A stretch of DNA of 64,000 bases from the NCBI GenBank assembly GCA_041178425.1, contig JBEGVH010000009.1:209250-273249 (forward strand), in the 5' to 3' direction. Within the stretch, counting starts at the first letter, position 1, and every line of letters starts with the position of its first letter. Both the position numbers and the translations under genes were made by a program. Below the pieces are notes generated by a model that saw only the letters and a list, made by a program, of their open reading frames with translations, was not told the DNA's origin and did no database searches. Positions 3,551 to 64,000 of this stretch are shown piece by piece. This DNA is from Pseudomonadota bacterium. GTDB lineage: Bacteria > Bdellovibrionota > Bdellovibrionia > Bdellovibrionales > Bdellovibrionaceae.

Positions 3551-3570
3551 AATTTTTTAGAATTATAAAT

Positions 3571-3600
3571 AAAAAAGGGCCGATTCCAATGGCCCTTTTT
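3571..3600. terminator. Bidirectional intrinsic terminator
   Basis: AAAAAAGGGCC-loop-GGCCCTTTTT between convergent genes. Confidence 0.75.
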
Positions 3601-4259: not shown

Positions 4260-4277
4260 ACGAACTCCCTCACCATT

Positions 4278-4934
4278 TTAATTGACCTCTTTAGGGTAAA
4301 CTGCTTTTGAAATTTCGTACACCCCTTTTGCAGAGCTGAATTTGATTGAAACCCAATGTTCTAATTGTTTCTTATTTTTAGTTATTTCGTAGATTTTTCC
4401 TAACAATGAAGGGCAATCGGCTTCGGCAATTCCGCTCTCAATCCCCATCACTGATGGGATCGGTTCAACGACCAAAGATATAGCTCTGTGCTGATCATCA
4501 AAAATGTAAAATTCGGTCCAAAATTCATCTTTCCTTAAGGCCGTGGGATTTGAATTACCTCTTGAGATTTTCGACCGGCCAGTGACTTCAGTTCTCTTAT
4601 AGTGAAAGAGAAAAAGATCGCGCCCTTGGCATTTAACGTTGGTGTGCAAAAGCATAAACTGGCTAAGTTGCGATTTTTGTTTATTTTCTTTTTGCTCCAC
4701 TGATCTTTTTAATTCTTCAAACTCAGATCCGTTATTCAAGCGTATTACGGAAATCGGTAGATACGCCGGAGTGCTCTCTTGAGAGATTGTGCGAGCAGCA
4801 AGCTCGGTTTCTACGGCTCGTGCCGATTGAAAGAGAAGGGCGCTCGAAAAGGGGGGAGCCTTTGCCACAAGGTATAGCCCTAACAAAAATGAACAGAGTC
4901 CTAAAAATTGAATGATGCCTGAGTATCTCAACAT
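4278..4934 (-). CDS. Hypothetical membrane-anchored or secreted protein
   Basis: 218-aa ORF with an N-terminal hydrophobic helix, co-oriented with its neighbours. Confidence 0.65.
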   Translation of the reverse strand: MLRYSGIIQFLGLCSFLLGLYLVAKAPPFSSALLFQSARAVETELAARTISQESTPAYLPISVIRLNNGSEFEELKRSVEQKENKQKSQLSQFMLLHTNVKCQGRDLFLFHYKRTEVTGRSKISRGNSNPTALRKDEFWTEFYIFDDQHRAISLVVEPIPSVMGIESGIAEADCPSLLGKIYEITKNKKQLEHWVSIKFSSAKGVYEISKAVYPKEVN

Positions 4935-5046
4935 GGTTTACGTTCCGATTCTGATTTAAACTTGTTATTGAATGAAGCCAGACATACAAAAATTCAGTAA
5001 CAAATTCGCCTTAATTTTTATCAAGGTCAGAGATCGGGAAGCCGTT

Positions 5047-5080
5047 AAAAAAAACGGGCAGAATTTTTTACTCTGCCCGC
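5047..5080 (-). terminator. Intrinsic terminator after fadA
   Basis: CGGGCAGA...TCTGCCCG inverted repeat with an A-tract on its left (U-tract on the minus strand). Confidence 0.7.
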
Positions 5081-5102
5081 TTCACCATTTTGGAACTAAC
5101 AA

Positions 5103-6302
<1,200 letters not shown>

Positions 6303-20900: not shown

Positions 20901-23863
20901 TAAATTATACCAATTTGAGTTCCTGGACTCCTAATGCGATAAGTTTTTCACAAACTTATGCCTTTACAGTACCACAAGCAAACACGAGCTCCGCAAAAAT
21001 TAAACTTACAGCTACCAACTCGATTAACAAAACGGCCTCCAGTGAATCTAATGCCTTTGTAATTGACTCTACGATTCCCTTAATGACGGCGAATCAATTC
21101 TTTCTCAACGGAGGCGCCACCACCACGACCACTAGCGCCTTCAAAGTTAGCTTGAAGGCTGCAGATAATCTTACTCCCATCACCGCTTTTTGCCTCAAAG
21201 CCAATTCAACGACTGCACCCACGAGCGAAGATAACTGCTGGCGATCAGTCTCTGCCTCCCCGCCCGGCCTCACACCAAACATAAATCTGAGTCTCGTGAA
21301 TTTTCCATTTGCAGCGGGTGCATCTCCCGGAAGCTACTCTATCTATGCGTGGGTTAAAGATAAGGCTCAAAACATTTCGACTTTGTCGAACGCCGGCAGC
21401 GGTACCGTCGGACTCGATAAGGCGTCTATTAGTTACAGTCCACCAGTGGCACCACTATTGATCAATTTGATCGCCTCAAAACGAAGTAATCCTGGTAACC
21501 CTCTCGATCCGATCGAAGATCTTTATGCCCCCGCAGGCACACCAATTTACCTCCGCTGGAAGGCAACCGATAATCAAACGCTTCCTGCAACTCCTATACA
21601 GGTCACATACACCCTTGATGGAGTCACTTTTTCACCAGTGGCAGCTGACCTTAGTAATGGCGTCAATGGTTCTTGTACCTTCAATGCGACCGATTACACA
21701 GGTTGCTTTCAGTTTGATTCTCCAACCACCTCGGCATTTTCTATTCGAGTCACTGTAACAGATGCAGAAGGTGTGTCGGTGTCTGCGAGCTCACAGCCTC
21801 TAAACAGTAAACCATTGAACATTATCGCCGGCAACACCGATACCGGGCTCGGTGGTAGCGCCGCCCTAGCTGTTATTTTTCACCGAGAACGAGGTCCTGG
21901 AACTTGGAGCGGATCGGGCGGTTTTGTTGTTCGCAACGAAGGCGATATGTATCTGATCGACGACCGAGGCCTAATGAAAGTCGATCTTTCAGATGGAATC
22001 TACAAACGATTCTTACCATACACTGGCTCCCACCAAGACGGCTCCATCGCGGCAGCGACCCTTTCGCGTTCACCCGTCAAAATTGCCCTCGATTTTTCTG
22101 ATCGGTTGCTTATTTATGATAACGATCGAATTAAACGGGTCGATTTTAAAACAAACACTATCAGCACGATCATCGGCGGCGGATCGTCAACAGCCAGCGG
22201 AACCAGCGCACTACAATTTAAGATCACACCTGTAGGATCTGTGAATGTGTCCTTCTATCCACTTCCGAACGGTGATATCTGGTTTCAAACAGGAGATGAT
22301 CATGGACACTCGCGAAGTGGCGGCGCAAAAATGCGTATTTACAAAGCGAGCCTCAACCAAGTATTCACTCTCACCCCCACCGGCACGGGCTCGCTCGAAG
22401 ACGCAGCTTTTGATCCGACAAATTACGGCATCTATAATTTTGGAATCGCGTTTAATCCCTCGACGTCAGAGGTCACGCACCTGAGATCCCGATCGATTAT
22501 TCCAACTTCGGGCGGTCATATTCCCCGCAGTGTCAGTTACGACCCAGTCACAGGCGTTACTAAGACGCCTCATGTTCCGTGGGTGAGTTACTGGAGCGAT
22601 GATACCACTATCAATAGTCGCTCCGGCGAAATGTATGTGGTAAATAGATTTACTTTGAATGGTTTATTTAAATATGTTCCCGCTACGAACAGTTGGACAC
22701 GCCTCTTAGGGACTGGCACCAAAGGGCAATGCCCCGACGGCACGCCAGCACTGAGTTGTAATATGGACATTGCCGACGCTTTTATTGGCGATCAAGATCG
22801 CATCTTTTTTCTAGATAGAGGGCGCATACGCACGCTCGATAGCGCGGGAAAAGTGGTAACACTCTACGGGCAAAATCTCTCTTTTGGTGATGGAGGGAAT
22901 CCGAGCTCGGCCCGAATAAATGAGATTCTCTGGCTCGATATAACGAATGCTGGCTCGGTCATCTTTATCGACAATGCTGAATTCAAGATTCGAGAATTTA
23001 GCATGGGCAATCCCATCCAACTCCTCGCGGGAACTGGTAGTGATGCCGCCCCAAATACCTCTGACCCTGCAAACACCCAACCGGTTACAGTCAATTACTG
23101 GGGTGGGCACTATCCATTCGTTGCGAATCCTAGCAATGGAAATATTTTTTACTCGCGCGGTGGGGGCGTTTTCTCAATGCTCGATCGCATATTGAACAAA
23201 TGGGTTGATTTTGCCGGGACGGGCTCGACAAATGACGTCAATGCCGACGGCCTTTTAGGTAATCAAATCGCGATGAGTGGGTATCCTACGGGGCCCAATG
23301 GCTTCAACGGCTCACAGGTGTTACGGCACCGCCACGAATGGAATGGCACTCAATACACCGACGCTTTTTTAAAACTCTATGATGTGAACACAGGACAACA
23401 AAGCGCTTTTGCCGGTGTAACAGGTATAGGACTTGCTGGAAGTATTGACAATTGTGCCGATGGCACTGCACTCACAAGTTGTGCCATGCCCCACAACCAC
23501 GGAACGCTCAGCAAAATTCACTGGGATCAAGCAAACAATCGTTGGCTAATTCATCAAGCCGGAAGCAATCGTATTCGCACAGGTGTTACAGGCGGAACTA
23601 TGCAGACCCTTGTCAATCTCCCCCATGGATCAAATGCCTTTGTTTATGTGCCAAAAGCCTCGGGGAACGTAGTCTATTACTGCACGAGTGGAAGACTCCA
23701 CCGCTACAATCTTACAAGTGCCACTGATGATACTCTACCTTGGCCCGACTCGACCACCAGCTGCAGCGGATTATCTATGGTTTGGAACGCGAATCGAACT
23801 TCAGTGGTGTTTCCAATTAGGAAAAACAATCTCGGAGGGGTTGCAGAATATATTGATCCGTGA
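17972..23863 (+). CDS. Large surface lipoprotein with tandem Ig-like repeats and a C-terminal NHL-like beta-propeller region (putative adhesin)
   Basis: Lipobox FLAC; many repeats ending D..GN...(I/L)DSTPP; C-terminal IAG/LAGTG propeller-like repeats. Confidence 0.85.
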   Translation: MIFRTNKFIFERSLNQFLLMVLSSFFLACQMDVAVNYSDASKSFRIAGTENLEKIYMKGNSSFQVVWDPNDLSEEDQDIIFELSLDNGKTFQIVGEAKRFSGSALLNMPIANTPGALIRMRVSAQVLGTTKVFTIDSTAPEIRSSTVLDGRVRGGAEQTLNLILADSLSGISSLQVEFESTESQVIKTVFLNTIPAGDLERLQLKFSFPRVSKEGFLVTKLFDRSGNISIIKNPLSIDSTPPDSPNFNFATPSPISTNDVTVQVSNCEVGTKILFTESSLQPETNSPDWKTCEPDQNFQLTPSDGLKTIRGWSMDDVENISGQPSSKTIVLDSSPPTLAILSPNIGTVIKGGTEYSLSWLASDALSSFQTQLEFSTDGGLTFQELPNGTNSNTQPWTVPLIDTNQAKVRLRATDDANNTSSVVSTNFIIDSTPPMITVPSLSSLRGGAEAVIEFSTSDSGSGMVGGLSSVRFEYSADGISFDPIATVSGLASSFRWSVPITNTETAKLRIIAVDAIGNQKTETTGPFSIDSTPPSQPTFTWDTQSPTNSLIVSFTASSCNDIAGYYVNLGSPPTGNEGGWRLCNTTAGGLSYITSGLIDGDQTFFVWVKDAVGNINPVSSQMNFVYDTTAPALQLLSPSSSLSLAGEKQLSVSWEASDAHFGLKPMKLEYSSTGTSPWTTLIASTENDGAFVWTIPSLDSQNVKFRLTASDLAGNISRVESPTLSIDSTPPQPPSISLTSSSPTANRRVTMTVNNCSDIHKLVATEGLPPNVDDDALWHECSTDANSLVYDLPTSEQGSRTINIWAIDSVKNVSLSSTDITIIYDDVSPQLTLQSLPNTINSGTNITITWSITEATISPSKSFLIEVKQNSSASWETIATVASTLGPLSNKTFSTTWAVPSWTTNDARIRISISDLAGNFSTIESNNFSIQSGFPNLNLTGIPDVVKGGTSLNLELIATTPAGQLNEVVLSYAADGINYTNLSSWTPNAISFSQTYAFTVPQANTSSAKIKLTATNSINKTASSESNAFVIDSTIPLMTANQFFLNGGATTTTTSAFKVSLKAADNLTPITAFCLKANSTTAPTSEDNCWRSVSASPPGLTPNINLSLVNFPFAAGASPGSYSIYAWVKDKAQNISTLSNAGSGTVGLDKASISYSPPVAPLLINLIASKRSNPGNPLDPIEDLYAPAGTPIYLRWKATDNQTLPATPIQVTYTLDGVTFSPVAADLSNGVNGSCTFNATDYTGCFQFDSPTTSAFSIRVTVTDAEGVSVSASSQPLNSKPLNIIAGNTDTGLGGSAALAVIFHRERGPGTWSGSGGFVVRNEGDMYLIDDRGLMKVDLSDGIYKRFLPYTGSHQDGSIAAATLSRSPVKIALDFSDRLLIYDNDRIKRVDFKTNTISTIIGGGSSTASGTSALQFKITPVGSVNVSFYPLPNGDIWFQTGDDHGHSRSGGAKMRIYKASLNQVFTLTPTGTGSLEDAAFDPTNYGIYNFGIAFNPSTSEVTHLRSRSIIPTSGGHIPRSVSYDPVTGVTKTPHVPWVSYWSDDTTINSRSGEMYVVNRFTLNGLFKYVPATNSWTRLLGTGTKGQCPDGTPALSCNMDIADAFIGDQDRIFFLDRGRIRTLDSAGKVVTLYGQNLSFGDGGNPSSARINEILWLDITNAGSVIFIDNAEFKIREFSMGNPIQLLAGTGSDAAPNTSDPANTQPVTVNYWGGHYPFVANPSNGNIFYSRGGGVFSMLDRILNKWVDFAGTGSTNDVNADGLLGNQIAMSGYPTGPNGFNGSQVLRHRHEWNGTQYTDAFLKLYDVNTGQQSAFAGVTGIGLAGSIDNCADGTALTSCAMPHNHGTLSKIHWDQANNRWLIHQAGSNRIRTGVTGGTMQTLVNLPHGSNAFVYVPKASGNVVYYCTSGRLHRYNLTSATDDTLPWPDSTTSCSGLSMVWNANRTSVVFPIRKNNLGGVAEYIDP

Positions 23864-46319: not shown

Positions 46320-48462
46320 TTGGGGGCTTTTATCTTAAGAACCGTGAGGGAATTAAATTATCATTTTAGAGATGATGGGGCGATACCCATTACAGGGAAT
46401 CGTTGGAATCGTTCTGTAAAAATAAACACAAAACGTTTAGTTTCTCATTCTGCTGGCGTATCTATTATCGAACTCATGCTCATGCTAGGGGTCATGGCGA
46501 TCGTTTCCCTGGGTGTTGCTTCCATCTTCAACTTTGGCTTTGAAGGCCTTCGGCATATGCAAGGAGGTACTGAGACTTTATCGCTTGAACAATTGATCGA
46601 AAGAACGCTTGCTCGCCCCCCCCTCTGTTAGCGAAAAGCAAAGTAATATTTCTAGAGTTTGTCCCGTAGGTCTCAGGGATATAGGTAACTACAGCGGTAC
46701 AAAAAAAGATTTAAATGGAATCTACGACGCTGGAGGATCAAATGTCGTTGCTTCCATCAACGTATTTGAGCTTTCACTTTCGACCTATGTGGACCAAGCC
46801 ATTGTTGGTCCTATTTCTTTTTCAGCCCCTGATGAGGCTCAACCAAATAGCCCTATGACTCCCTTTAACTACTGGCTTACAAACATTGTTGTAGTAGGCA
46901 CAAAAAATAATGCGAACAAGTTGGGAGGAGATACTTTTCGTGGCCGGGTTGGCGTTGGTTTAATTACTAAGGCAGACGGAACCCTTTATGATTGTAAGCT
47001 CAACACTCTCGATGAACGCAAAATTTGCGAACTCCTGGGAGGAACTCTCGCTCGAGATCCTATTCTGCTCCCACGATGTGTATTTAACCGACTTCCAGTT
47101 GTTCAAGACTGGAGCTTGATGCCAGCCAATAATACTCCCCCGTTTATTAATGGCGATACTTATGTTCAACGAATCCTGTTTGCGGGAGACGCTGCTACTT
47201 TGAATACTAGTTTTACAAACCGAACCAATTCGCCTAGACCTGTTGGCTTAGCCGTTGCCACTCCTGACAAAAAACTCCTTGCCGTTGGCGAAGGAGATGA
47301 CGGCAGCTTTGGATTTACTAGTTACAAAAACGGTTATCGAACTTGGTCGCTATTTCCTGATCCAAATACCGGCAATGGCTTATTCCCCAACGGCAAAATG
47401 GCTCTCAGAACCTATGGAGATACGCCATTTGTATTTGGCACAGGCTCTAGTACCTCAGCCGTCATCTCACCTCGGAGAAAACTTTTTGCCGTCAACGGCG
47501 CCATGACATCTACAGATCTTGGAAAAGCCAGATCCTACCTCAACGGCCAAAGCAGCACAAACCCACTCAGGGAAAATCTGGGTCTGCTCGTTATTCATGG
47601 TGATGACTCTAAGACCTTTCTTGGCTCAGCGGCGGGAGACAGCGCTTACGGTGTCTTCACGGTTTCTCCCACACAACCTTTGGGTGGCATTTTTTATGTT
47701 GATGCTTCGAGTCCTTACTGGAATGGCAGTCCCGCAGGGGGCATGGTCATGAAAGCCTATAACGGTAATGACCTCATCTTTATGAACAAAAATTCTTCTC
47801 CCTGCTTAGCCGACTGTGTTCCTCTCCTTATTAGAGGTGATACAGGGAACGCAAATATCGGCGGCGGTTTTACGATAAGGCATAACGCTAAACTCTATGT
47901 TAACGCAAAAGATAGCCTTATCGGAAATCCAGGGCTAAAGGTTTTAGGCCAGAGCACGTTTGACGGCGAAGTGAGATTTTCATCGATCAAAGAATCAATC
48001 TTTGATGGTGTTATGAGAGTCGCTGGTACGATTCATAACCCCAACACCGCAAGAATTGTTGTCGGGGATTCGGATGAACGGCTAAAAACAGACATTCAAC
48101 CTATTACTAATGCCCTCGAGAAACTTTTAAAAATAAATGGTGTTTATTACCGCTGGAAAAACAAAAAATGGGGGCCCCATCGCCAAATGGGTGTGATTGC
48201 CCAAACCGTGGAGAAGGTATTCCCTGAGGCCGTCTCTACGTCGCCATCTGGAACTAAGGCTGTTGCCTACCAAAACCTAGTGGCACCTCTCATTGAAGCC
48301 ATAAAATCTCAACAAAAAGAAATTGAAAGTCTCCAGCATGAGCATGATTCTTTAGCCGAAGAGCTAAATCAAATGCTCGAACGTCTGTGTCTTGATGCTC
48401 CGGATGAAGAGCTCTGTCGCCTAACAAGTGAAATTTCAAAAGAAGAATTGAGAACCCAATGA
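46320..48462 (+). pseudogene. Prepilin-like / fibre / peptidase-S74 protein 1, frameshifted at a C8 tract (phase-variable gene, pseudogene or sequencing error)
   Basis: ORF 46320-46631 holds G|VSIIELMLMLG, and ORF 46609-48462 holds the rest including SDERLK. Removing one C from 46616-46623 joins them into a protein collinear with the two downstream paralogs. Confidence 0.8.
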
Positions 48463-50492
48463 ACAATTTGACTTGGTTCTCTAAAATCAAATTGACGGCC
48501 GCAGACTTTAAAATAAAAGGCGATGAAGCTGGTGCCACTTTAATCGAGATGATGTTAATAGCGGGCCTCATTGGAATTCTAGCGACCGGAATTGCCGCGA
48601 TCTCAAATAATGGGTTTCAGAATTTGCGTAATATTCGTATCGGTAACGATCTTCAGAGCATTGAGAACTTAGTATCAACCGCACTTAAGAGGCCTGCCAC
48701 TCCCAATGAACTGCGACTCGGTGAACGAATTTGTCGCAAGAGCCTATCGAACCTCAATAAATATAATGGCCTTAAAATCACAGGTATAACCATCAATGGG
48801 CCAAATGGAGAGGAATTACTCGCTCCATTCAGAAAAAACTCATACACTGCAAAAGTCGAAATATCTGATGCTGTCATCGGGCCTATTCCAGCGATTTATC
48901 CAGACTCAGGTGCTAATGGAAAGCTAACAAATTTTAATGTTTTCATTACACACTTGCTGATCATTGGCGAAAAAGATGTTAACGATCAAAGTGTCGGAAG
49001 TAAAATAACCCGAACGCGTATTCCAATCGCCATCGTGACTTACCCTAATGGAGATCTCTACGATTGTGCTGTTAATCCAACGGATGACAAAAAAACATGT
49101 TTAATGCTTGGTGGTCGATTCACCGAGGATCCCTTATTAACTCCTCGTTGTTTGATGACCAAGCTTCCGATCGCAGATGATTGGGGCGCGATTCCTACAG
49201 CTTCAACATTTACTCTCGGAGATTTATTTGTTCAAAACGTAATCGGAATCGGAGTTAAAGATGAAATCACTAGAACGCGTCAGCTTTGGAAAGTACAACG
49301 AGGTGTTGCGCTAGGAGGTGCCGCGAATCAGGGAATGGCCTTTGGTGAACTAGAGAATGGAAACATTGGTATTGCTGCAAACCTCGATGGCTCTCGCTTT
49401 TATTCCTTATTGACCAAAGAGGATAAAAAAAATCTTTATAGCCAAGGTTATTTTTCATTAGATACCTATGGAGATCGAGCCTGGTATTTCGATGCCCTCA
49501 AGGGGACCTCTGGCAATAGCTTTGATATCGGCATGGGCCTGAATGGTTCCCGTAAGTTCTTCTTTTCTGAGGGTGCAATGGTTTCTGCCCGTCTCACAGA
49601 AGGCTTACAGTACCTTAATGGCACGCAAATGTTTCCTCTTGGTATCGATCGTGGCTTTATTGCCCATAATAGTGATAATAGAAAAACCTTACTCGGACGC
49701 TCTCTGGATGGGGCCTCAGGATTCTTTTTTGCTAACGATACCAACGTTTTCGGATCAACCAAAACTCTCGCAGGCGCCTATTGGACGAGTAACTACCCAG
49801 GTGGGGCCATGGTTTTCAAGGCCTATGGAGGTAGTGACCTCATTTTTCAGGTGGCACAACAACAAAATAATTGCAGCAACTGCACCGCGATGGTCATGAA
49901 GGGGCTAACCGGAGATATTGGAATTGGAACTGGATTTAGTCGACCAGAAGCGAAACTTCATGTCAGTGCAGGCAGTGCTTTTTCCCCCGCCTTGAGGGTG
50001 GTAGGTCGCACGGAGTTTCCGGGAGAAACAAGGATTATTGGCAACTCCTATTTGAATCGCTCCCTGGAGGTCAGAGGAACATTGCGTTCCAACCAGACGA
50101 TCTATGCGGCCTCCGATGAGAACCTAAAAACCGACATCGAACCTATCACCAACGCGCTCGAGCATATTCTTAAAATCAATGGAGTTTACTTTCGCTGGAA
50201 AAATGAACCCCCAAATTCATCTCCTACCATTGGTTTAATTGCCCAAAATGTTGAAAGGTCATTCCCCGAAGTTGTTTTTGATACAGAAAAAGGAACGAAG
50301 GCTGTGGCCTACGCTAATCTTGTCGCGCCTTTGATTGAAGCTATTCGCGAGCACCAAATTCAAATTAACGAATTAAAAAAGAAGAGAGATCAACTGCATC
50401 TAGGCGTTGAACGACTAAGAGCAAAACTCTGTGAAAAAAAATCTCAAGACATCATTGTGAAAAGAAACTGTAAGAAAGGAGGATCGCTGTGA
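48459..50492 (+). CDS. Prepilin-like / fibre / peptidase-S74 protein 2
   Basis: G|ATLIEMMLIAGLIG N-terminus; GDIGIGT..P.AKLHV fibre motif; SDENLKTDI...GLIAQNVE..FPEVV...VAYANLVAPLIEAI and a coiled coil. Confidence 0.88.
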   Translation: MNNLTWFSKIKLTAADFKIKGDEAGATLIEMMLIAGLIGILATGIAAISNNGFQNLRNIRIGNDLQSIENLVSTALKRPATPNELRLGERICRKSLSNLNKYNGLKITGITINGPNGEELLAPFRKNSYTAKVEISDAVIGPIPAIYPDSGANGKLTNFNVFITHLLIIGEKDVNDQSVGSKITRTRIPIAIVTYPNGDLYDCAVNPTDDKKTCLMLGGRFTEDPLLTPRCLMTKLPIADDWGAIPTASTFTLGDLFVQNVIGIGVKDEITRTRQLWKVQRGVALGGAANQGMAFGELENGNIGIAANLDGSRFYSLLTKEDKKNLYSQGYFSLDTYGDRAWYFDALKGTSGNSFDIGMGLNGSRKFFFSEGAMVSARLTEGLQYLNGTQMFPLGIDRGFIAHNSDNRKTLLGRSLDGASGFFFANDTNVFGSTKTLAGAYWTSNYPGGAMVFKAYGGSDLIFQVAQQQNNCSNCTAMVMKGLTGDIGIGTGFSRPEAKLHVSAGSAFSPALRVVGRTEFPGETRIIGNSYLNRSLEVRGTLRSNQTIYAASDENLKTDIEPITNALEHILKINGVYFRWKNEPPNSSPTIGLIAQNVERSFPEVVFDTEKGTKAVAYANLVAPLIEAIREHQIQINELKKKRDQLHLGVERLRAKLCEKKSQDIIVKRNCKKGGSL

Positions 50493-52540
50493 TTGCCAAA
50501 GACCCAGTATCGAAAAAAAATGTATCATTATCAAACGAACCCTCTTTATCGGGCTCTGAAACTGGAATTGCATTAATACAGATCACAATGATAATTGGGA
50601 TAATGTCTATCATTGCAATCTCAATCGCGACACTTTCAAACTCAAGTTTACAGGGTTTAAAACATATGCGAATGGGAAACGATCTTGACGCTTTGAAGGG
50701 TCTCATTAAACTCGCGCTAACTCGCCCTCAAACACCTCAGGAGGCACCTAAGAACGGTCCCCCATTTGATCCAGGCACTAAGGTTTGCTTGGCCACCCTC
50801 CCTGATCTAAAAAACTACAGATACGATGGTAAAGAATATCCTGCATCTCCCGATCAAAGTCTCCGAGTGGTTGGGCCCAGCGGAAATAACCTTCTTAGAT
50901 CGTTAATTGATTTACAAGCCAATAACAACCGACCCACTGATTATTCAATCAAAGCCCGATTGGTAAAAACGGTGGCCGCAAGTACACCCATTATTTATCC
51001 CGACCAAACGGGCTCTCCCAAAACCTATAATCTTTGGAAAACCAATATACTTATCGTCGGTGAAAAAGTAGCTGGTGATGACCAAGGGGGTAAAATCCTT
51101 CGAGGAGAAATACCTCTTGGCCTCATCACAGATCCTGCAACGGGTTACATTTTTGACTGTATCGTCGACCCAACAGACTACGAACAAATCTGCCGCACAC
51201 TGGGTGGCAAGTATGATATCACTAAAACTCCCAATTGCCTCCTGACCAGGGCGGCTGTTGCAGGCAGTTCTCCCCCACTCACGGAATGGGACAAACTTCC
51301 GAATGCACAAGGGTTTACAAATGGTGATCTGTTCACTGAAAACAGGATCCTCATTGGAAACACAGAACGCATTGATTGGTCATTAAACAATTGGCAAGCC
51401 GCGCGGTCCTTGTTAATCGGTGGCACCCAAAAAAACGGTATGACCCTCGGTCAAAATAAATCGAATGCCGTTGGAATATCTACAGACTTAAATAACTCCT
51501 CCATTTTTGCTATTTTTTCGGACATTGACTCCTCCAACGGAATTTTTCCGGCTGGCAAGGCGATCGTTCGAACATACGGCAGCCGACCATTTGTATTTTC
51601 TAACGTTTATCCATTGCAAAAACCCAATATTGATTCAGACCATTTGATCATGGATCCTACTAAAAAAATGCTCATTAATGATGGCCTTTTACTCGCTACT
51701 AATCCCGATAACAACCCAGGCCTGATGAATGGAAGCGAATCAATTCCACTCCTTGATAACGTAGGACTTGCAGCGGCCTATAGTGACGGACGACGAATCG
51801 CACTTGGCACAAATCAATCTTCGGATATGGGGCTTTGGAGCCGCAAATCAGGCCAAACCGACGGAGCTATTTATTTTTCGAGAACCCATAGTGCCATCGA
51901 TAGTAGTTTTGGAGGTTTTGTTTTTAAACATTACAAGGGGGGAGACCTTGTCTTTGTTCGAAAGCAATCTACCGATGGAGTTGCTATGACGATAAAAGGC
52001 AACAGTAACATTGGCATTAATGAATCTAATCCGCAGGCCCGTTTGCATATTAATGGAGTTGGCTCACTTGGTCTTCGCGTTGATGGCACCTCCACAATCC
52101 AAGGAGAGTTAATTGTTAATGGACCCACGTTTGTAGAAAACGACACCCGCGTCACGCGTGATATTTGGGGCAACCAAACGGTCTCTGCAGATTCTGACTT
52201 TCGCCTCAAAACGGCGATCAAACCAATTGAGGGAGCTTTAGAAAAGATCTTAAAACTAAACGGAGTTTATTTTCGATGGAAGAATCCCCTGCAGAGCCAA
52301 AAACGACAAATTGGCGTTATCGCTCAAAATGTCGAAGAGGTTTTTCCAGAACTTGTCATAAACAATCGAGATGGAACTAAATCGGTTGCCTACCAAAACT
52401 TAGTGGCTCCGATAATAGAAGCAATTCACACTCAAGATTCACTTCTCAGGGAAATTCGAGATAAAAATACCAAACTCAATGTAAAACTCGAAAAAATTCT
52501 AAAATGTCTAAACAAAGATGATACCACAAATAAAAAGTAA
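50489..52540 (+). CDS. Prepilin-like / fibre / peptidase-S74 protein 3
   Basis: G|IALIQITMIIGIM N-terminus; NIGINESNPQARLHI; SDFRLKTAI...GVIAQNVEEVFPELV. Confidence 0.88.
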   Translation: MIAKDPVSKKNVSLSNEPSLSGSETGIALIQITMIIGIMSIIAISIATLSNSSLQGLKHMRMGNDLDALKGLIKLALTRPQTPQEAPKNGPPFDPGTKVCLATLPDLKNYRYDGKEYPASPDQSLRVVGPSGNNLLRSLIDLQANNNRPTDYSIKARLVKTVAASTPIIYPDQTGSPKTYNLWKTNILIVGEKVAGDDQGGKILRGEIPLGLITDPATGYIFDCIVDPTDYEQICRTLGGKYDITKTPNCLLTRAAVAGSSPPLTEWDKLPNAQGFTNGDLFTENRILIGNTERIDWSLNNWQAARSLLIGGTQKNGMTLGQNKSNAVGISTDLNNSSIFAIFSDIDSSNGIFPAGKAIVRTYGSRPFVFSNVYPLQKPNIDSDHLIMDPTKKMLINDGLLLATNPDNNPGLMNGSESIPLLDNVGLAAAYSDGRRIALGTNQSSDMGLWSRKSGQTDGAIYFSRTHSAIDSSFGGFVFKHYKGGDLVFVRKQSTDGVAMTIKGNSNIGINESNPQARLHINGVGSLGLRVDGTSTIQGELIVNGPTFVENDTRVTRDIWGNQTVSADSDFRLKTAIKPIEGALEKILKLNGVYFRWKNPLQSQKRQIGVIAQNVEEVFPELVINNRDGTKSVAYQNLVAPIIEAIHTQDSLLREIRDKNTKLNVKLEKILKCLNKDDTTNKK

Positions 52541-56149: not shown

Positions 56150-57721
56150 TCAGAGAGGACTACAAAAAATCTTTAAATAATTCTCATAACAATTGGCTCC
56201 TCCACCGGAGTTTGATGACATTTGAACATTGATCGCCTTTGGGTAATAGCCGGCAATAGGAGTGCCCTCAACATGACAGCGTACGCTTTCAGCGCACGAT
56301 TCCGAACCCTTGGCAAAATTGAATTCTGTTGTTGGTGAATGTCGATTGGACTGCACAAGTCGCACACCTATACTTCTTTTAGAAGTCGCCGTACATTTAT
56401 GATCTGGGATGTGGAGCTCTCCACCTTTTGCTATAAATTTGGAAATGTAACATCCGTCATCACAAACACCTACTAAGAATCTAGAAATTTCCTCACCATC
56501 CACAGCCTTGTCTCCACCAAAGACTTTATCGTGGCATGTTGCAGCTCTACCCACTGGCTTCCACGTTGGAGGATTAGTTGCTGATCCATCGCCTCCACCA
56601 CAAATTTCCATCTGGTGAGTCACCTTATTGTAGCGAATCGCCCCTTCTGCATCAGTATTACAATTTACAGAATTTGTGTTTCCCACGATGACTTCACCAC
56701 TCACATCGAGTTTAGATCGTGGTGAATCTTTTCCAACTCCAACGTTTCCCGCGTTAGTAATCATAAGTCTTACCTTACTATTATTATCTGGCTCACTCGC
56801 GGTCATTGCCGTGTGCAATGCAATAGTACCAGGAGATTGGAGTCGAAGATTATGTCCGGGGTTTCCAACTCCGATACTCTCATAAGGATATGCCATATCA
56901 ACCCCTGTGCTTGAATGGCCAATAATGACACCATTTATCAAGGCACCTTCCCTGCTGTATAACCCCATGTTGGGTGTTGCCGCCTCCATATTTTCTCGAT
57001 CATTGAAATTATTGGCTATGCCTAACTTTTTCAGTAAACAGGGGGGTGATTTGCTCGGCTCGTATTGACCGCCTAAGACTTCACACATTGCCTTATAATC
57101 TTGAGAGGAAGTCGCACAATCATAAAAAGTGTTTGGACTTCCAGGCAGTGGTCCCGTTATTATCGAGATTGGAATTCTAGCCCTAATACTAATAGTTCCA
57201 GCAGGATCGTCAGATCTAATTCCATTAAGAGAAATAATAACTGAATTTTTATTGAAAGCTTTTAGAGTGCTATCCCTGCGATCAACAAGTTGTACGCTCG
57301 TGCCGGGCGCTGCGGGTGAAAACAACTTAGCTTCAATTCTGTAGCCACCGAGGGTATTTAGTAGAGTTTTTCCGTTCATCTGTATGTCACTCAAATTGAC
57401 CTTGGCGACTGGAGGATCTTGAAAGGGAAAATTATAGGTCGTAAGGGGTGCCCCGTTCACTTGAAGGGCGCTTCGACAAACCTCCGGCTCCGCAAGTGAC
57501 ATTTGTACGAGGTTTTGCACAGTTTGAAGATCGTTGCTCATTCGAACTTGCTGAAAACTGTTATTGCTGATCTTAAAAATCTCGGCGATGACCAAAATGA
57601 GAATTCCTAAAATGGCAGCACCGATGGTTACACTCGTTAAGGAGAATCCAAATTCATTTTTGAGTCGGCCTCGAAAAAGGTTCAGAAAACTAAGATCTCG
57701 TGATTCTTTTGAAGTCGCCAT
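56150..57721 (-). CDS. Prepilin-like adhesin, paralog of the 46-52 kb fibres but lacking S74
   Basis: G|FSLTSVTIGAAILG; shared YDC-x9-C-x2-LGG...PPC motif; GNVGVG..SP.SKLDVSG; C-x4-EGAIRYN..W linker followed by a Cys-rich C-terminal domain. Confidence 0.82.
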   Translation of the reverse strand: MATSKESRDLSFLNLFRGRLKNEFGFSLTSVTIGAAILGILILVIAEIFKISNNSFQQVRMSNDLQTVQNLVQMSLAEPEVCRSALQVNGAPLTTYNFPFQDPPVAKVNLSDIQMNGKTLLNTLGGYRIEAKLFSPAAPGTSVQLVDRRDSTLKAFNKNSVIISLNGIRSDDPAGTISIRARIPISIITGPLPGSPNTFYDCATSSQDYKAMCEVLGGQYEPSKSPPCLLKKLGIANNFNDRENMEAATPNMGLYSREGALINGVIIGHSSTGVDMAYPYESIGVGNPGHNLRLQSPGTIALHTAMTASEPDNNSKVRLMITNAGNVGVGKDSPRSKLDVSGEVIVGNTNSVNCNTDAEGAIRYNKVTHQMEICGGGDGSATNPPTWKPVGRAATCHDKVFGGDKAVDGEEISRFLVGVCDDGCYISKFIAKGGELHIPDHKCTATSKRSIGVRLVQSNRHSPTTEFNFAKGSESCAESVRCHVEGTPIAGYYPKAINVQMSSNSGGGANCYENYLKIFCSPL

Positions 57722-58021
57722 AAGATAATCTCCGAAAGTTATTATCTAGATGGTATCTGGAATTCAAAAGTTGTCGATATTTTAAAGGAAATGAAAAAGA
57801 ACAGATAACTGCGTTAACTTGTAACTCTTGACTTGTTTTTGTTACCATCTTCTTTAAAATTGCCCTTTTTCTTCCTCTTTTTTGCAATCTCGCGAATCTC
57901 CTATCGTTCTAATTGGCTTTTTTCAGATGGTCTGTTTTTTGCATAACCTATCTTCAATTGAAGTCTAGCGAGAGTTAAGCTAAATATATTACTGATAACG
58001 AAGGGTAATTAATCTTTATTT

Positions 58022-59036: not shown

Positions 59037-59192
59037 TTCCTCCAAAGAAAACCATTCACTGTCTGAAAGCAATGAGTGCGACCGCTTTACGATCTGGTAA
59101 TCCAATCACCGGACGTCAAACACCCCTCAATCGAGCTCACTGGTATTTCAAATTTGCAATAACAGCCCTCTGGCTGAACCACTCGAGGCCTT

Positions 59193-59370
59193 AAAAAAGA
59201 AACGACCCCCATTCTATGAAAAATGGAGGTCATTATGAAAAATCAGAACCACAACCTTGTTCTGATTCGACATATTTTGACTGTGGCTCAAGCGTTCTTA
59301 GGTCTAGTTTTACTAGCCCTAAAAATCTACGAGCTCTTAACCCAGCTTTTTTGAACTGCACGTTTGTGGA
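59193..59370 (-). ncRNA. Predicted cis-antisense RNA (candidate antitoxin), copy 1; 5' end approximate
   Basis: Minus-strand terminator GACCUCCAUU...AAUGGGGGUC-GUUUCUUUUUU; only weak promoter-like boxes at about 59372-59403. Confidence 0.5.
59235..59354 (+). CDS. 39-aa hydrophobic peptide (candidate type I toxin), copy 1: MKNQNHNLVLIRHILTVAQAFLGLVLLALKIYELLTQLF
   Basis: GGAGGT SD; start, stop and frame are conserved in copy 2, with synonymous and conservative substitutions. Confidence 0.75.
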   Translation: MKNQNHNLVLIRHILTVAQAFLGLVLLALKIYELLTQLF

Positions 59371-59584
59371 ACAGGTACGTTAACGGATGATTTTGTAAAT
59401 CAAATGTTTTTGTTCCCAATGAGGGAAGAGTGGTCATAGATCGCTCTTTCCTCAGCGCTCAACGGATAGGGCTTAAAACCCTGTGGGGCCTTTCACGGAG
59501 AGGCGAAGAGTGGTTCGGCCGCTTTGATTGCGATGATAAGATCGACCATAGTTCTTTAACTTTAGACTGCATCGAAAGACCTCC

Positions 59585-59608
59585 GTCCCCGCAATAGTCC
59601 CCGCAATA
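59585..59608 (+). repeat. 12-bp tandem duplication GTCCCCGCAATA x2
   Basis: Directly visible, ending 2 nt from the stop codon of the 59611-59928 gene. Confidence 0.85.
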
Positions 59609-59610
59609 AT

Positions 59611-59928
59611 TTACTCGATGTAAATTTCACCACTACTAACTCGATAAATTATGCCGTTGATCTCATCGCCAACATCACGCCGACAATCATGGCCGTCTTT
59701 GATACCCACATTGACTCCGAGATTTAAGACTTCTACTTGATCGAGAGGGCAAACCATACTTGAAGAGAAAAATCGAATATCCTTTAATTCAATTTGAGCT
59801 ACACAGGAATTAGTGTTTTTCACGACGCTCGAAATTTTGGCGATTATTTGCGCCTCTTGCTGATCGCAGGCAAACGATAATGAGCCAAAAAACATTGATC
59901 CAAATAAAATTAAGTTTTTCACAAACAC
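59611..59928 (-). CDS. Small secreted hypothetical protein
   Basis: Signal peptide ending SFA; 4 Cys; AGGAG SD (the start may be the GTG at 59922). Confidence 0.72.
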   Translation of the reverse strand: MFVKNLILFGSMFFGSLSFACDQQEAQIIAKISSVVKNTNSCVAQIELKDIRFFSSSMVCPLDQVEVLNLGVNVGIKDGHDCRRDVGDEINGIIYRVSSGEIYIE

Positions 59929-60246
59929 TCCTATAAAATCGGTTTGGTTATGAAAGTCATATCACCACTCTGCGATGGCTCTTAAAAAAAAGGGGTTGTT
60001 TTGAGAAAGACACTAGGAAAGCCCAAGTAGGAACTCTCTCTCCGTCTTTCGGATGACCTCGGAACCCTTCCACTATTTTCCTTCACCCCTACTAACCAAA
60101 GAAAACTCTTAACCATCTAATACCTATGGGTATTTAAGCGCTTATTTTCTATATGTAATCATCATCGAGAGTCTCGTAATCTTTAACTACAGGGGTGATT
60201 CACTACCCAATGAACGGCCCCATAAAAACAAAAAGAGGAGCATCTC

Positions 60247-60834
60247 ATGAAAAAAGCTATCTTCACAACAGTCTTGACCATTCTGTTTTCTTGGACCGCC
60301 AACGCAGGCGAATCTAAGAATCGTCTGAGTTACGGGTTTGGATTTTTTTCGATCAAGGTTTTTTCAGGAGTTGGTTATGAACGCTTACTCACTCCAAACC
60401 AATCGCTAGAAGTGAATCTTGGAGTAGACCCCTTTTATGGCGTGTCCTCTAGTTTGAGTTACAATTATATTGTCGGTGATAAAAACCACACAGCCAGTCG
60501 ATGTTTGATTTTTTTGAATTGTAAAAAATGGGATAAGTTCGGCTTTGGAGTACAACGGTTTTCATCTTGGAATTATGAATTCGGCGCTGAGGGATCAACC
60601 GAGCGCAGAGTCTACTCCGTCGGCATGAAAGACTGGGGACTCCTGAATTGGGAAAGCGGCGCTGAATTCAGCTTTGGAATTTATACCAGCGTGGCTTTTA
60701 CCTATAAATCTCCGCTACAAAAAACCAATCCAAAGGTAATCGAAGGTTCCGCCCTTCAAACTGATATCGACTTTATTAATTCACTCAAGAAACCTAGCGT
60801 GGGTATGGCCTTCAACATAGGTATTGCGTTATAG
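60247..60834 (+). CDS. Secreted protein, possible outer-membrane beta-barrel
   Basis: GAGGAG SD; signal peptide ending ANA; alternating aromatic/Gly strands. Confidence 0.7.
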   Translation: MKKAIFTTVLTILFSWTANAGESKNRLSYGFGFFSIKVFSGVGYERLLTPNQSLEVNLGVDPFYGVSSSLSYNYIVGDKNHTASRCLIFLNCKKWDKFGFGVQRFSSWNYEFGAEGSTERRVYSVGMKDWGLLNWESGAEFSFGIYTSVAFTYKSPLQKTNPKVIEGSALQTDIDFINSLKKPSVGMAFNIGIAL

Positions 60835-60867
60835 AATTTAACCCACCTTAAGACCAATCGAGGCACA

Positions 60868-60892
60868 AACGCGAGCAAGCTTGGCTCGCGTT
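60868..60892. terminator. Intergenic hairpin
   Basis: AACGCGAGC-N7-GCTCGCGTT perfect inverted repeat. Confidence 0.45.
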
Positions 60893-60991
60893 GTCCTCGT
60901 CGATCGTCTGTTTTTTTCGGTCCAAGAGTGAAAGTATGAACTATCTGTTTTATTCTCAAGGGGCTGCCAAATCATCTGCAGCGGAGGATCT

Positions 60992-62005
60992 ATGAAGAAC
61001 TGGAAATTGATCGCGCTCACCGTTCTTATCACAAAACTAGTACTCATCTCTGACCAGGCCTTTGCAAGATCAGTACATCCTCATCAATCAACAGATCTTG
61101 AATCGGCCATGGAACCAACGGAGATTGCCTCTTATACTGAACTGGAAGACCTAAACACGATGCCCAGCCACCTAAAGTATTTTGGATACTATGCCAGTGG
61201 CGCTAACCCCGAGGTCGCCTCCCACTCGAATGTGTATTGGATTCTTGACGGCCAAGGGGCGAACACTGAGGCTATTCTTGCGCAACTACAAAAATCTAAA
61301 GAGGATGGCTTGAAAGCCATCGTCAGTTTATCAGGCTATTTTTTTCAGGCTGACTTCAATCTGAAGGACCCAGCAGAGTACAATCAGAATTGGAATACTC
61401 TTGCCGCCCAAATCTCCCCTTACGTTGCCGATGGCACTATTCTCGCTTTTTACCCACTGGATGAGCCATACAACAAACTCGAAAAAAATAGGAAGACAAA
61501 AAAACAAATGCGGCAAATGTTAGAAACCATTGGTAGCACAATAAAAACAACATTTCCGGGAAGTCTTGTGGCGGTGATTTTTGGTGTCGATGGAAAAGGT
61601 TTTTCAGGGCAAGTGCCAAGAAACTACGATTGGATTGGCTTTGATGTTTATGACTGCTGGGACAACTGTGTGGGCAAATCGATTCCTCAAATCTATGAAG
61701 AGCTAAAATCAAACCTAACTTCAGCAGACCAAAAAATTTTCTTGGTTCCCGACACTTGGAAATGGTCGCTGGGCTTACCAAGTAATAATGAAATAAAAAA
61801 AATGATCACACTCTTTAACAAATATGTCGCCTTTGCCAAAAAGAAAGTCCGCATTATTGGGATGTTCAATTTTATTTATCAAGATCTCCCGTCCTACGAT
61901 AAAAAAGGTAACTTTAAGGGTTATTTTCCGGGAACAAAGAGTGCTCCTGCCCTTCTTGATAAAGTGAAAGCAGTTGGAATTGAGATTAAGCAAAATAATC
62001 CTTAG
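60992..62005 (+). CDS. Secreted TIM-barrel glycoside-hydrolase-like protein
   Basis: Signal peptide ending AFA; GLKAIV, FYPLDEP and DWIGFDVY resemble clan GH-A strand motifs; GGAGG SD. Confidence 0.65.
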   Translation: MKNWKLIALTVLITKLVLISDQAFARSVHPHQSTDLESAMEPTEIASYTELEDLNTMPSHLKYFGYYASGANPEVASHSNVYWILDGQGANTEAILAQLQKSKEDGLKAIVSLSGYFFQADFNLKDPAEYNQNWNTLAAQISPYVADGTILAFYPLDEPYNKLEKNRKTKKQMRQMLETIGSTIKTTFPGSLVAVIFGVDGKGFSGQVPRNYDWIGFDVYDCWDNCVGKSIPQIYEELKSNLTSADQKIFLVPDTWKWSLGLPSNNEIKKMITLFNKYVAFAKKKVRIIGMFNFIYQDLPSYDKKGNFKGYFPGTKSAPALLDKVKAVGIEIKQNNP

Positions 62006-62071
62006 TCTAACAAGGAAGTAGGGTCTTCACGATTGAATGAATCAAACTGAGGGTTTATGGGGAACGGTATT

Positions 62072-62128
62072 GTCTAGCTTTACTAGCCCTAAGGATCTAC
62101 GAGCTCACTGGGTTTTCAAATTTGCAAT
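62072..62128 (+). repeat. Permuted partial copy of the 59 kb / 63.7 kb repeat
   Basis: 62072-62106 matches 59302-59336 and 62100-62128 matches 59132-59160; the two are joined at a shared CGAGCTC. Confidence 0.85.
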
Positions 62129-62165
62129 CGCAAATCTCGGGTGAACCAAATAAGCGCTCGCATTT

Positions 62166-62453
62166 TCAAACCATTCCCGGACCGAGAAGTTTGATTCGAA
62201 TGGGACCCTTAGCTGTAGACGGATCAACTATAACTCTTTTTTGGAGGATCGCAATTTTTCCTTGGGCCGCGAGACGCCTTGCTGCCGAACGGACTTTTTC
62301 CATTAACAACTTATCCTGTTTCTGACTTTCTGGCAGAACTTCGGAAGGACAGATAGTTTTTCCAGCACCTCGACGTTTCAGTAGGTCAAGAATTTGTGCT
62401 TCATAGGTGTCCTGAGGCTCCATTATTCGTCCACAAGTGGCGCACGTCTTCAT
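62166..62453 (-). CDS. DUF3253-like small winged-helix protein with an N-terminal CxxC
   Basis: KTCATCGR, KTICPSEV, VRSAARRL and KGPIRI motifs; ATGA overlap with the upstream gene. Confidence 0.8.
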   Translation of the reverse strand: MKTCATCGRIMEPQDTYEAQILDLLKRRGAGKTICPSEVLPESQKQDKLLMEKVRSAARRLAAQGKIAILQKRVIVDPSTAKGPIRIKLLGPGMV

Positions 62454-63409
62454 GAGTGTTCACACTTTGCCACGAGGAACTTTTTGAGGTACTCCGCCAA
62501 ACTATTCGAACTCTTCAGAGCACCATTGAGACTCGCGCCACCAAATGCATCGCCGGCCAGATAAAGACTGGGAGCCGGGTTTTCAAAAAACTGATTCCAG
62601 ATCCGCGTAGGCTGAGCATATCGCCACTTTTTGACCTGAAGATTCAAAATGTTTGGGCGCGGAAACTTTTGGCTTACGATAGCGTGGGCTGCCTGCGCGA
62701 TTTCGCCGTCCAAGCGATCGAAGTGTGTATTTGTCCAAGGCTCCTGCATCACGAATGTGTAATCCGGCTGCTTCCCGAGACCCTTCGCTTGTTGGCTACA
62801 GATGGAAAAAATATTTTTGTCTACATTTTCAGAATAAATCATTTCGGTTTCGAGCGCCGCATCGAAACGCAATAGCAAGACGACTGCTTTTTGATAATGA
62901 ATGTTCACAAGGTCCGCCGCGAAGGAAATTCCAGACCGATTCAGAATCTCCAATGACTGTGGTAACGGGCACGTCAAAACTACCTGCTGGGCATCTAGAG
63001 GCTCACCCTCTTCAAATGAGACTCGCCAATGATCGCTCTGTTTCTCCAGCTTTTGGACTTTTAAATTATAAGAGATGTTCAACGGCGCCGCTAACTTCTT
63101 TGCCAAGTCGGTCATGCCGGAGGCGCCACAGTAAGCCTCGAAAAGGTCAGACGGAAATATCTTCAAAACATTTTCTTGCCGCCAAAATTCAAACAATTTT
63201 TGTGCACCCAGCGAATTCTTAATGAACTGAGCCCCGTGATCATATCTGGACTCATCCACTCGACGCGTGGCCATGCGCCCACCACAACTCTTTGATTTTT
63301 CGGCAATGAGAACCTGAAGGCTTGGCGTAGCCTGCTGAAGTTCCCACGCTAGGTTGAGGCCGGTAAGCCCCGCTCCCACTATCAGAAAATCGCACTTCGA
63401 AACTGACAT
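62450..63409 (-). CDS. FAD-dependent oxidoreductase (renalase-like)
   Basis: GAGLTG, EKS..GGRMATRR, DHGAQF, WRYAQP and AGDAF motifs. Confidence 0.9.
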   Translation of the reverse strand: MSVSKCDFLIVGAGLTGLNLAWELQQATPSLQVLIAEKSKSCGGRMATRRVDESRYDHGAQFIKNSLGAQKLFEFWRQENVLKIFPSDLFEAYCGASGMTDLAKKLAAPLNISYNLKVQKLEKQSDHWRVSFEEGEPLDAQQVVLTCPLPQSLEILNRSGISFAADLVNIHYQKAVVLLLRFDAALETEMIYSENVDKNIFSICSQQAKGLGKQPDYTFVMQEPWTNTHFDRLDGEIAQAAHAIVSQKFPRPNILNLQVKKWRYAQPTRIWNQFFENPAPSLYLAGDAFGGASLNGALKSSNSLAEYLKKFLVAKCEHS

Positions 63410-63734
63410 TTTTTTCCTTGTTTATCTTATCGTACTTCACGCAGGAAGCTTCTGCAAAAATAAGTTTCAATGATTCGTGGATGTGAGGGTCTACATAAAT
63501 AACGGAGGCGGTAGTACTTCTTTGCTTGCTGTTGAACATAGCCTTGGCCGTACCCAGCTTATCCACTCATTCAAGGTAGCTTGGCGATAAACTGATGGAG
63601 CTTCGAAAGGCACCCACGTTCGGCCGCCTTTCGATCTGGGATTCCAATCACCGGACGTCAAACACCTCTCAATCGAGCTCACTGGTATTTCATTATTGCA
63701 ATAACAGCCCTCTGGCTGAACCACTCGAGGCCTT

Positions 63735-63912
63735 AAAAAAGAAACGACCCCCATTCTACAAAAAATGGAGGTCATTATGAAAAATCAGAAGAAAAAGCTA
63801 ATTCTGATTCGACATATTTTGACTATAGCTCAAGCGATCTTAGGTCTAGTTTTGCTAGCCCTAAAGATCTACGAGCTTACTTGCCAGCTTTTTTGAACTG
63901 CACGTTTGTGGA
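63735..63912 (-). ncRNA. Predicted cis-antisense RNA (candidate antitoxin), copy 2; 5' end approximate
   Basis: Same minus-strand terminator stem (63746-63773) and U-tract; only the loop differs from copy 1. Confidence 0.5.
63777..63896 (+). CDS. 39-aa hydrophobic peptide (candidate type I toxin), copy 2: MKNQKKKLILIRHILTIAQAILGLVLLALKIYELTCQLF
   Basis: GGAGGT SD; 31 of 39 residues identical to copy 1. Confidence 0.75.
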   Translation: MKNQKKKLILIRHILTIAQAILGLVLLALKIYELTCQLF

Positions 63913-64000
63913 ACCGGTACGTTAACGGATGATTTTGTAAATCAAATGTTTTTGTTTCCAATGAGGGAAGAGTTGTCATCGATTGTACTCCCCTCGCCGC

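Follow-up and report, generated by a model that had tools for sequence, protein, structure and literature searches.

The window analysed here is a stretch of 64,000 nucleotides (nt) from a Bdellovibrionaceae genome (positions 209,250 to 273,249 of contig JBEGVH010000009.1, assembly GCA_041178425.1), and near its end it carries two copies of a repeat that is, by sequence comparison, one member of a large unannotated family encoding small membrane peptides. With a probability of roughly 0.73, we interpret this family as a new group of chromosomal type I toxin-antitoxin (TA) modules that have the layout of AapA/IsoA and are wired to alternative sigma factors. The support at the level of sequence consists of a coding open reading frame (ORF), a hairpin enclosing the Shine-Dalgarno (SD) sequence, a helix joining the 5' and 3' ends, an antisense promoter motif and a terminator. 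A first-pass annotation, made from the letters of the window, had already suggested a type I TA system, and the sequence analyses speak for that suggestion; the unusual and new part is the promoter types (FliA and sigma-54-like), which that annotation had not seen.

The two copies, A and B, are direct repeats with a start-to-start distance of 4542 nt and 90% identity across 300 nt without gaps, and their BLAST alignment (91% over 368 nt, E 1e-146) is above chance. The first-pass annotation was right about the copies and their spacing, but the length of about 375 bp that it gave merely reflects the end of the contig: copy B is incomplete because the window stops at the end of contig C9, and similarity to other genomic copies carries copy A to ~59521, the unit being ~350-370 nt per copy. 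Both 39-codon ORFs are open as described, each with GGAGGT 4 nt upstream of the ATG and within the hairpin GACCCCCATT..AATGGAGGTC. Four synonymous differences separate the ORFs (CTT/CTA, TTA/TTG, AAA/AAG, CTC/CTT), together with eight non-synonymous ones; the synonymous and the conservative changes (V/I, V/I, F/I) listed earlier are all present, but five further substitutions (N5K, H6K, N7K, L35T and T36C) had been omitted. A third, collapsed copy lies at ~62070-62141. The features of the three loci are as follows.

59154-59521, plus strand: whole unit of copy A, from the promoter box to the 3' pairing strand; predicted mRNA ~59169-59521, ~350 nt.
59154-59158, plus strand: TTGCA, putative sigma-54-type -12 box, with the nearest GG at N12 (canonical N10).
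59171-59184, plus strand: 5' strand of the long-distance 5'-3' helix.
59193-59234, minus strand: intrinsic terminator of the antisense gene, 15-bp stem and U tract; on the plus strand the same hairpin hides the SD GGAGGT (59225-59230).
59235-59354, plus strand: ORF A, 39-aa cationic hydrophobic single-helix peptide, candidate toxin.
59193-59256, minus strand: predicted antisense RNA A, ~60-64 nt, two hairpins, candidate antitoxin spanning codons 1-8, the start codon and the SD.
59265-59291, minus strand: FliA/sigma-28-type promoter in ORF A, -35 TTGAG (59291-59287), 16 nt, -10 TCGAAT (59270-59265).
59355-59507, plus strand: 3' untranslated region (UTR) with family-conserved boxes (59374-59390) and a hairpin (59464-59482).
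59508-59521, plus strand: 3' strand of the long-distance helix, predicted mRNA 3' end.
62070-62141, plus strand: collapsed remnant, partial ORF fused to the upstream region at a shared 7-nt word, with no start codon or SD hairpin.
63696-64000, plus strand: copy B, its 3' UTR cut by the contig end; -12 box 63696-63700, 5' helix strand 63713-63726.
63777-63896, plus strand: ORF B, 39-aa peptide, 79% identical to that of ORF A.
63735-63833, minus strand: antisense gene of copy B; FliA-type promoter 63833-63807, predicted +1 at 63798, terminator 63776-63735.

For statistics, 84 of the 90 recovered ORFs were retained (six truncated or read-through ORFs were dropped) and reduced to 64 members at less than 85% DNA identity, 61-62 of which had sufficient flank for flank-based tests. 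The encoded peptides are 32-45 aa long and consist of a polar, variable N-terminus, an invariant Arg, a Leu/Val-rich core and a charged tail; the 19-residue Kyte-Doolittle mean is at least 1.6 in 59 of 64 members, with a median net charge of +5. AlphaFold models a single helix over residues 5-38 (predicted local distance difference test, pLDDT, 86), and this helix is cationic and amphipathic. The ratio of non-synonymous to synonymous substitution rates (dN/dS) is 0.33 for 30 disjoint pairs and 0.22 for the five closest paralogs, taken from the DNA search (0.2-0.33 overall, figures with a downward bias addressed below), and the other two sense frames are closed by stops in 64/64 and 54/64 members. 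These properties point to the small hydrophobic protein of 20-60 aa, read from a real ORF, that is expected of a type I toxin. Neither Pfam (searched with 94 members) nor NCBIfam or PHROG revealed a family common to more than two members, no PDB chain scored better than E 1.3, Foldseek returned nothing for the single helix, and the family peptides show no signal peptide. The clusters of TisB and DinQ are among the nearest named ones in the ESM Atlas, with scores of 0.83 and 0.82 that fall below 0.9 and serve as a lead only. By analogy with known systems, the peptide is most likely a self-poison, albeit one that the first-pass annotation did not recognise as a known toxin family and that has no match in Pfam, PDB or Rfam.

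The ORF appears to harbour a second gene on its opposite strand. In codons 11-19, silent positions are fixed beyond what codon use predicts (64 of 64 members versus 42 expected, 61 of 64 versus 34, and 58 of 64 versus 35), and the fixation persists where the amino acid itself changes (Ala/Thr/Ser; Lys/Gln/Arg; Ile/Phe/Tyr/Val). Read on the minus strand, the ORF contains the motif TT(T/G)AG or TCGAG, 16 nt, (C/T/A)CGA(A/T)N, that is TTxAG-N16-xCGAwx, which is of the sigma-28/FliA type: the mapped FliA consensus of Bdellovibrio bacteriovorus is TTAAG-N16-CCGATA, and the FliA promoters in Table S2 of that study show the same variants as the embedded motif (PMC3627812). The flagellin promoters of the present genome match the motif as well and closely resemble the promoter of B. 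bacteriovorus Bd0606. A FliA matrix derived from 111 intergenic sites of this genome (seeded on the B. bacteriovorus consensus, elements excluded) ranks the predicted site first of ~624 both-strand positions in 46 of 61 elements and among the top four in all 61, with a mean score of 10.5 bits as against -1.8+-0.8 after synonymous recoding. The ninth base past the -10 box, which is the start position in most rows of the published table (PMC3627812), is a purine in 56/61 members, and in all 13 members recovered later the best FliA site falls at the same place with a purine start.

A U-tailed hairpin terminator follows downstream on the same strand in 55/62 members, compared with 21/243 flanking segments and 18/310 shuffles. 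In the window subfamily this terminator is the SD hairpin itself, so that a two-hairpin RNA of ~60 nt spanning the start codon and the SD is predicted, and in the other subfamilies it is the leader hairpin, predicting 85-107 nt; the predicted length is 51-64 or 85-107 nt in 53 of 55 cases. The overlapping antisense RNA postulated by the first-pass annotation can accordingly be given a place in the sequence, as a putative gene with a FliA-type promoter inside the ORF and a terminator, lying on the opposite strand and complementary to the translation start. The changes that distinguish copy A from copy B are concentrated in codons 5-9, where the predicted antisense RNA has its 5' end, and this region could confer specificity between the paralogs. 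Both fliA and flgM are present in the genome.

On the sense strand, a leader segment of 10-20 nt remains complementary to the unit's 3' end even though members differ freely in its sequence. Own 5' and 3' partners score 36.7 and swapped partners 24.7+-4.6 (n=61), the own partner being ranked first of 61 in 19 members and among the top five in 46. Since wobble positions in this helix comprise 209 G-U and 95 A-C, we regard it as a helix of the sense-strand RNA and not as an inverted repeat of the DNA. The RNA of copy A (59169-59525) folds with -129 kcal/mol (z -6.5) and is closed by the 5'-3' helix. A consensus structure of 50 pairs was obtained for 11 window-type members. Two-sided changes occur in 18 of these pairs, and the structure includes the SD hairpin, a start-codon hairpin and one hairpin within the ORF; the shuffled and slid controls lie far lower, with 0-1 of 500 shuffles reaching the measures, the structure having been derived from the same alignment on which its covariation was evaluated. 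The computed fold and its covariation thus suggest an mRNA of 150-400 nt with a sequestered SD and 5'-3' pairing, as in type I toxin messages.

The sense promoter seems to be sigma-54-like, but for the window subfamily the call is weak. GG at N10 before GC occurs in 39/62 members, as against 0-6 at any other spacing, and the 5'-3' helix begins 12-14 nt past the C of the TGC box in 40/61 members; the window copies have TTGCA correctly placed but GG at N12. Intergenic sites of the sigma-54 pattern number 68 genome-wide at N10 versus 16-30 at other spacings, and rpoN is present in the genome. Scans for sigma-70 promoters gave a chance-level site only. A sigma-70 reading of the sense promoter was rejected for want of a -35 box, TTG occurring at a -35 position in 3/49 and 1/12 members, and because transcripts starting ahead of the leader hairpin would, in the main group, run into a U-tailed hairpin. 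As an observation apart, a canonical sigma-54-type box at ~57927-57943 (plus strand) of the window stands 94 nt upstream of a secreted-looking 139-aa ORF at 58022, and many sigma-54-type boxes across the genome lie ahead of genes whose starts resemble signal peptides. Taken together, both promoters of the element appear from their motifs to be tied to the flagellar sigma cascade, which runs the attack phase in Bdellovibrio, and this link is new.

Comparison of the repeat and the peptide with this genome and its relatives uncovers a large multi-copy family with selection on the peptide, in keeping with the first-pass annotation. The genome itself has at least 10 peptide-coding copies. Three stand in tandem on contig C23 (repeat lengths 508 and 474 nt), two divergent copies are in tandem on C31, and a third subfamily occurs on C9, C23 and C32, with several broken pieces elsewhere in the genome. 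Third-subfamily copies sit at contig ends (C23:1-250, the end of C31 and both ends of C32); therefore the assembly breaks there and the true copy number is uncertain. One of these contig-end copies adjoins an AAA_14/DUF4143 ATPase gene. A search of 1.84 billion representatives with a profile of 14 peptides retrieved 99 proteins (99 clusters at 50% identity) at E<=0.001, and inspection by eye recognized 98 of them as family members and one as an unrelated 546-aa protein. With a 94-sequence profile and at most 18 candidates scored per genome, matches were found in 39/401 genomes sampled from the phylum, namely in 31 of the 53 sampled genomes of the same family (in the GTDB sense) plus this genome, in 5 genomes of three further families of the order, and as 2 weak partial matches outside the order; they range from 0 to 15 per genome. 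We prefer the figure of 31/53 to a laxer count of 93/182 genomes at E<=0.1, which includes chance matches. Of five complete genomes searched with the broadest profile, one lacked any match and another gave a chance-level match only. A Saprospiraceae control genome gave no family match. The DNA search of 40 relatives found real matches in one genome of the same genus only, the remainder being noise at E<=1, and a word-indexed homolog search returned 6 proteins, none of them named. An exact 17-nt pattern scanned over genome contigs gave 25 matches, nearly all in unrelated taxa, which we treat as chance.

Neighbouring genes vary between loci and include no constant partner protein. Among the 80 of 118 neighbour ORFs that were scanned, three encode a Fic domain and two a transposase, and downstream neighbours are convergent in 42 of 64 cases. 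One site carries the unit in three genomes, one of whose copies has an internal deletion, and in a fourth genome with 89-92% identical flanks 30 nt stand in its place; this empty orthologous site shows no target duplication. Tandem copies, broken copies and an empty orthologous site thus occur in one family, and the same evolutionary pattern has been described for the chromosomal type I loci of Helicobacter pylori (PMC5416894). A subgroup of copies (L100, L101, L135 and L147) differs from most others in marking a long-lived locus: in several complete chromosomes it occupies the same place, ~12 kb from the start and beside a phosphoglucomutase-family gene. A separate dispersed repeat of ~100 nt lies beside the element at L121:1830-1950 and has several copies in related genomes.

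The dispersal of many copies that are gained and lost as a unit, along with the transposase adjoining two of the neighbour-scanned loci, would also suit a non-autonomous mobile repeat (a miniature inverted-repeat transposable element, MITE, or the end of an insertion sequence, IS) with an incidental ORF, the complementary ends being its terminal inverted repeats. We consider this explanation largely refuted and hardly credible, as the ends vary freely and tolerate G-U but not A-C (209 versus 95), the peptide is under selection, the family gave no match on phages, plasmids or viral contigs (for which a 39-aa query is an insensitive probe), and neither conserved terminal inverted repeats nor target duplication nor a cognate transposase was found. 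The first-pass annotation had named a match to the end of a known IS or MITE among the findings that would refute it; the variable ends and the empty site free of target duplication speak against such an origin. An integron cassette was rejected too, no attC-like ends being seen by eye.

The 3' UTR contains three short boxes whose sequence is conserved between the two subfamilies (59374-59390 and 59464-59500 in the window); they are perhaps processing or protein-binding sites. Together with the strong folding they invite the thought that the structured RNA, or an antisense RNA acting in trans, is the actual product, and that the ORF serves as a leader or attenuator peptide for the neighbours. 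We deem this very improbable: Rfam contains no match for the element, the genes downstream change between loci and are mostly convergent, and the amino acid pattern and dN/dS show selection on the peptide. A leader-peptide attenuator was rejected on the same grounds of varying, mostly convergent neighbours and peptide selection.

Compared with described systems, the element behaves, as far as its sequence tells, as a type I TA module in layout but stands outside every named family. In AapA/IsoA the antisense RNA lies within the mRNA and overlaps the ORF start, with its promoter inside the toxin ORF (PMC8594479, PMC5416894), and the predicted antisense gene of the present family is arranged in the same way; multi-copy chromosomal loci with ghost copies, a 5'-3' paired mRNA and a small membrane peptide are further shared traits. 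However, there is no sequence match to AapA/IsoA in Pfam, PDB or Rfam, the peptide has 32-45 aa instead of the 30 aa of AapA and comes from another phylum, and its toxicity is assumed by analogy. The promoters also differ, as IsoA1 has TATAAT and aapA1 TAAAAT (PMC5416894), both of the sigma-70-type TANNNT form, whereas ours are FliA-type for the antisense and sigma-54-like for the sense RNA. Hok/Sok and Ldr/Rdl resemble the family in their tandem repeats (~470-510 nt for the three on C23; tandem LDR repeats measure ~530 bp), 5'-3' clamped mRNA, antisense RNA of ~60 nt and membrane peptide of 35-50 aa. Their antisense RNA, however, lies 5' of the toxin ORF and acts via a leader ORF (PMC8594479), whereas ours is predicted to start inside the ORF and overlap the toxin start, and no profile or Pfam match links them. 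Repeated loci, an antisense RNA overlapping the ORF and a hairpin that doubles as antisense terminator recall Ibs/Sib of Escherichia coli, but Sib spans the whole ORF and the antisense RNA here is predicted to cover codons 1-8 only; the Ibs peptides have 18-19 aa. TisB and DinQ have a comparable short amphipathic membrane helix (again with ESM Atlas scores below 0.9, a lead only), but their antitoxins are encoded apart from the mRNA. The attack-phase small RNAs APsRNA3, 6 and 7 of B. bacteriovorus share the promoter consensus TTAAG-N16-CCGATA; unlike the antisense RNA predicted here they are intergenic, and they have no reported cis target (PMC3627812). Among the papers listed by literature searches, titles and abstract openings gave no report of a type I TA family in predators of the Bdellovibrio kind, and none of an antitoxin RNA controlled by a flagellar sigma factor; Bdellovibrio is absent from the main text of PMC2887945.

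As a type I TA module, the element would work as follows. An mRNA of ~280-370 nt would be made, probably from the sigma-54-type promoter, and would be silent at full length, its SD and start codon folded away and its ends clamped. Trimming of the 3' end would free the clamp and permit translation, by analogy with AapA1 and hok. The antisense RNA from the FliA promoter (50-60 nt in the window subfamily, 85-105 nt otherwise) would pair over the start site and block or destroy the active form of the mRNA. Should FliA transcription stop while mRNA remains, the peptide would be made, enter the inner membrane and depolarize the cell, leading to arrest or death. The steps of mRNA processing, RNase III decay and membrane depolarization are borrowed from known type I systems.

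A hint of the antisense 3' end, not proof of it, comes from a relative's copy (L121), which is present in RNA-library contigs of all four runs from three studies. At position 1425 of this locus, shortly beyond the U tract of the predicted terminator (1433-1429), the contig of run X4 gives way to 8 non-genomic letters that read as a minus-strand A-tail, which is what a tailed 3' end would look like; the contigs of runs X3 and X5 continue upstream. Gaps in the coverage by RNA contigs upstream of the element are given no weight.

Several points weigh against the TA interpretation. The tail was seen in a single contig of depth 10 in one of four runs and at a relative's locus, and RNA-library contigs carry no strand or level information and may include DNA. 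The FliA site of the window copies is by sequence a weak-to-middling match, its score of 8.6 falling below the 10th percentile (10.4) of the seed sites, and some of the silent-site conservation may be structural because parts of the motif sit in RNA helices. The dN/dS values are biased downward because members were picked by a protein profile. A loose alignment of 40 distant members yielded no consensus structure with RNAalifold, and GG-N10-GC is present in 38/50 members of the main group and 1/12 of the window type. Finally, an antitoxin made in one life phase only is odd for a classical TA pair.

In a different account of the same anatomy, our main rival, the peptide is non-lethal and has a role in development or predation. 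It would appear as a pulse between sigma-54 and sigma-28 activity, or at FliA shut-off on prey entry, and would tune a membrane protein or the flagellar motor or weaken the prey envelope. Its cationic, amphipathic helix, the near confinement of the element to one family of the phylum and the origin of both promoter types in the flagellar cascade fit such a role, as does the fact that FliA drives two thirds (92 of 140) of the mapped attack-phase promoters in B. bacteriovorus (PMC3627812). We nevertheless consider it unlikely, because the patchy distribution (0-15 matches per genome), the decay into broken copies and the clean empty site sit poorly with a needed gene, there is no signal peptide or constant partner gene, and layered translational locking is typical of self-toxic genes.

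The type I TA interpretation takes its simplest form in a selfish or defensive module whose antidote would be transcribed with the sigma factor that dominates in the non-dividing hunting cell. A more elaborate version is conceivable, if rather speculative. Sigma-54 acts before sigma-28 in flagellar cascades, and the element might be part of a life-cycle clock in which sigma-54 lays down the toxin mRNA during flagellar assembly and the antidote comes only from FliA, the attack-phase sigma factor that is set free upon completion of the flagellum. Were this true, progeny failing the sigma hand-over would make the membrane peptide, and so would an attack cell losing FliA transcription through phage, starvation or prey entry; the element would then serve non-dividing hunting cells as a checkpoint in development or a switch for abortive infection or, alternatively, be the source of a timed membrane-active pulse at prey entry.

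If real, the family connects modules of the addiction type with the switch between attack and growth in obligate predators, bacteria now under development as living antibiotics, and it adds about a hundred short membrane-active peptides (the 99 clusters mentioned above) that annotation has missed. Its design also implies that silent changes in the ORF should abolish the antidote and leave the peptide unaltered; the isoA1 promoter has been removed by silent codon changes in this way (PMC5416894).

Other parts of the window contain several further genes of interest. Three tandem paralogous genes at 46609-52540 (plus strand) have common C-terminal repeats, and the last ~95 residues of the third match a phage tail-fibre chain. 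A 523-aa gene in the opposite orientation (56150-57721, minus strand) has a weak prepilin-type N-terminal motif. These genes look like predator adhesin fibres with a self-cleaving chaperone. At 2471-8519, the class II aldolase and fadA/fadB genes exceed the cut-off scores of models bearing gammaproteobacterial gene names, and they were possibly acquired from prey-type bacteria. Finally, a 1963-aa protein encoded at 17972-23863 has short internal repeats ~300 nt apart and a match to an OmpL47-type domain.

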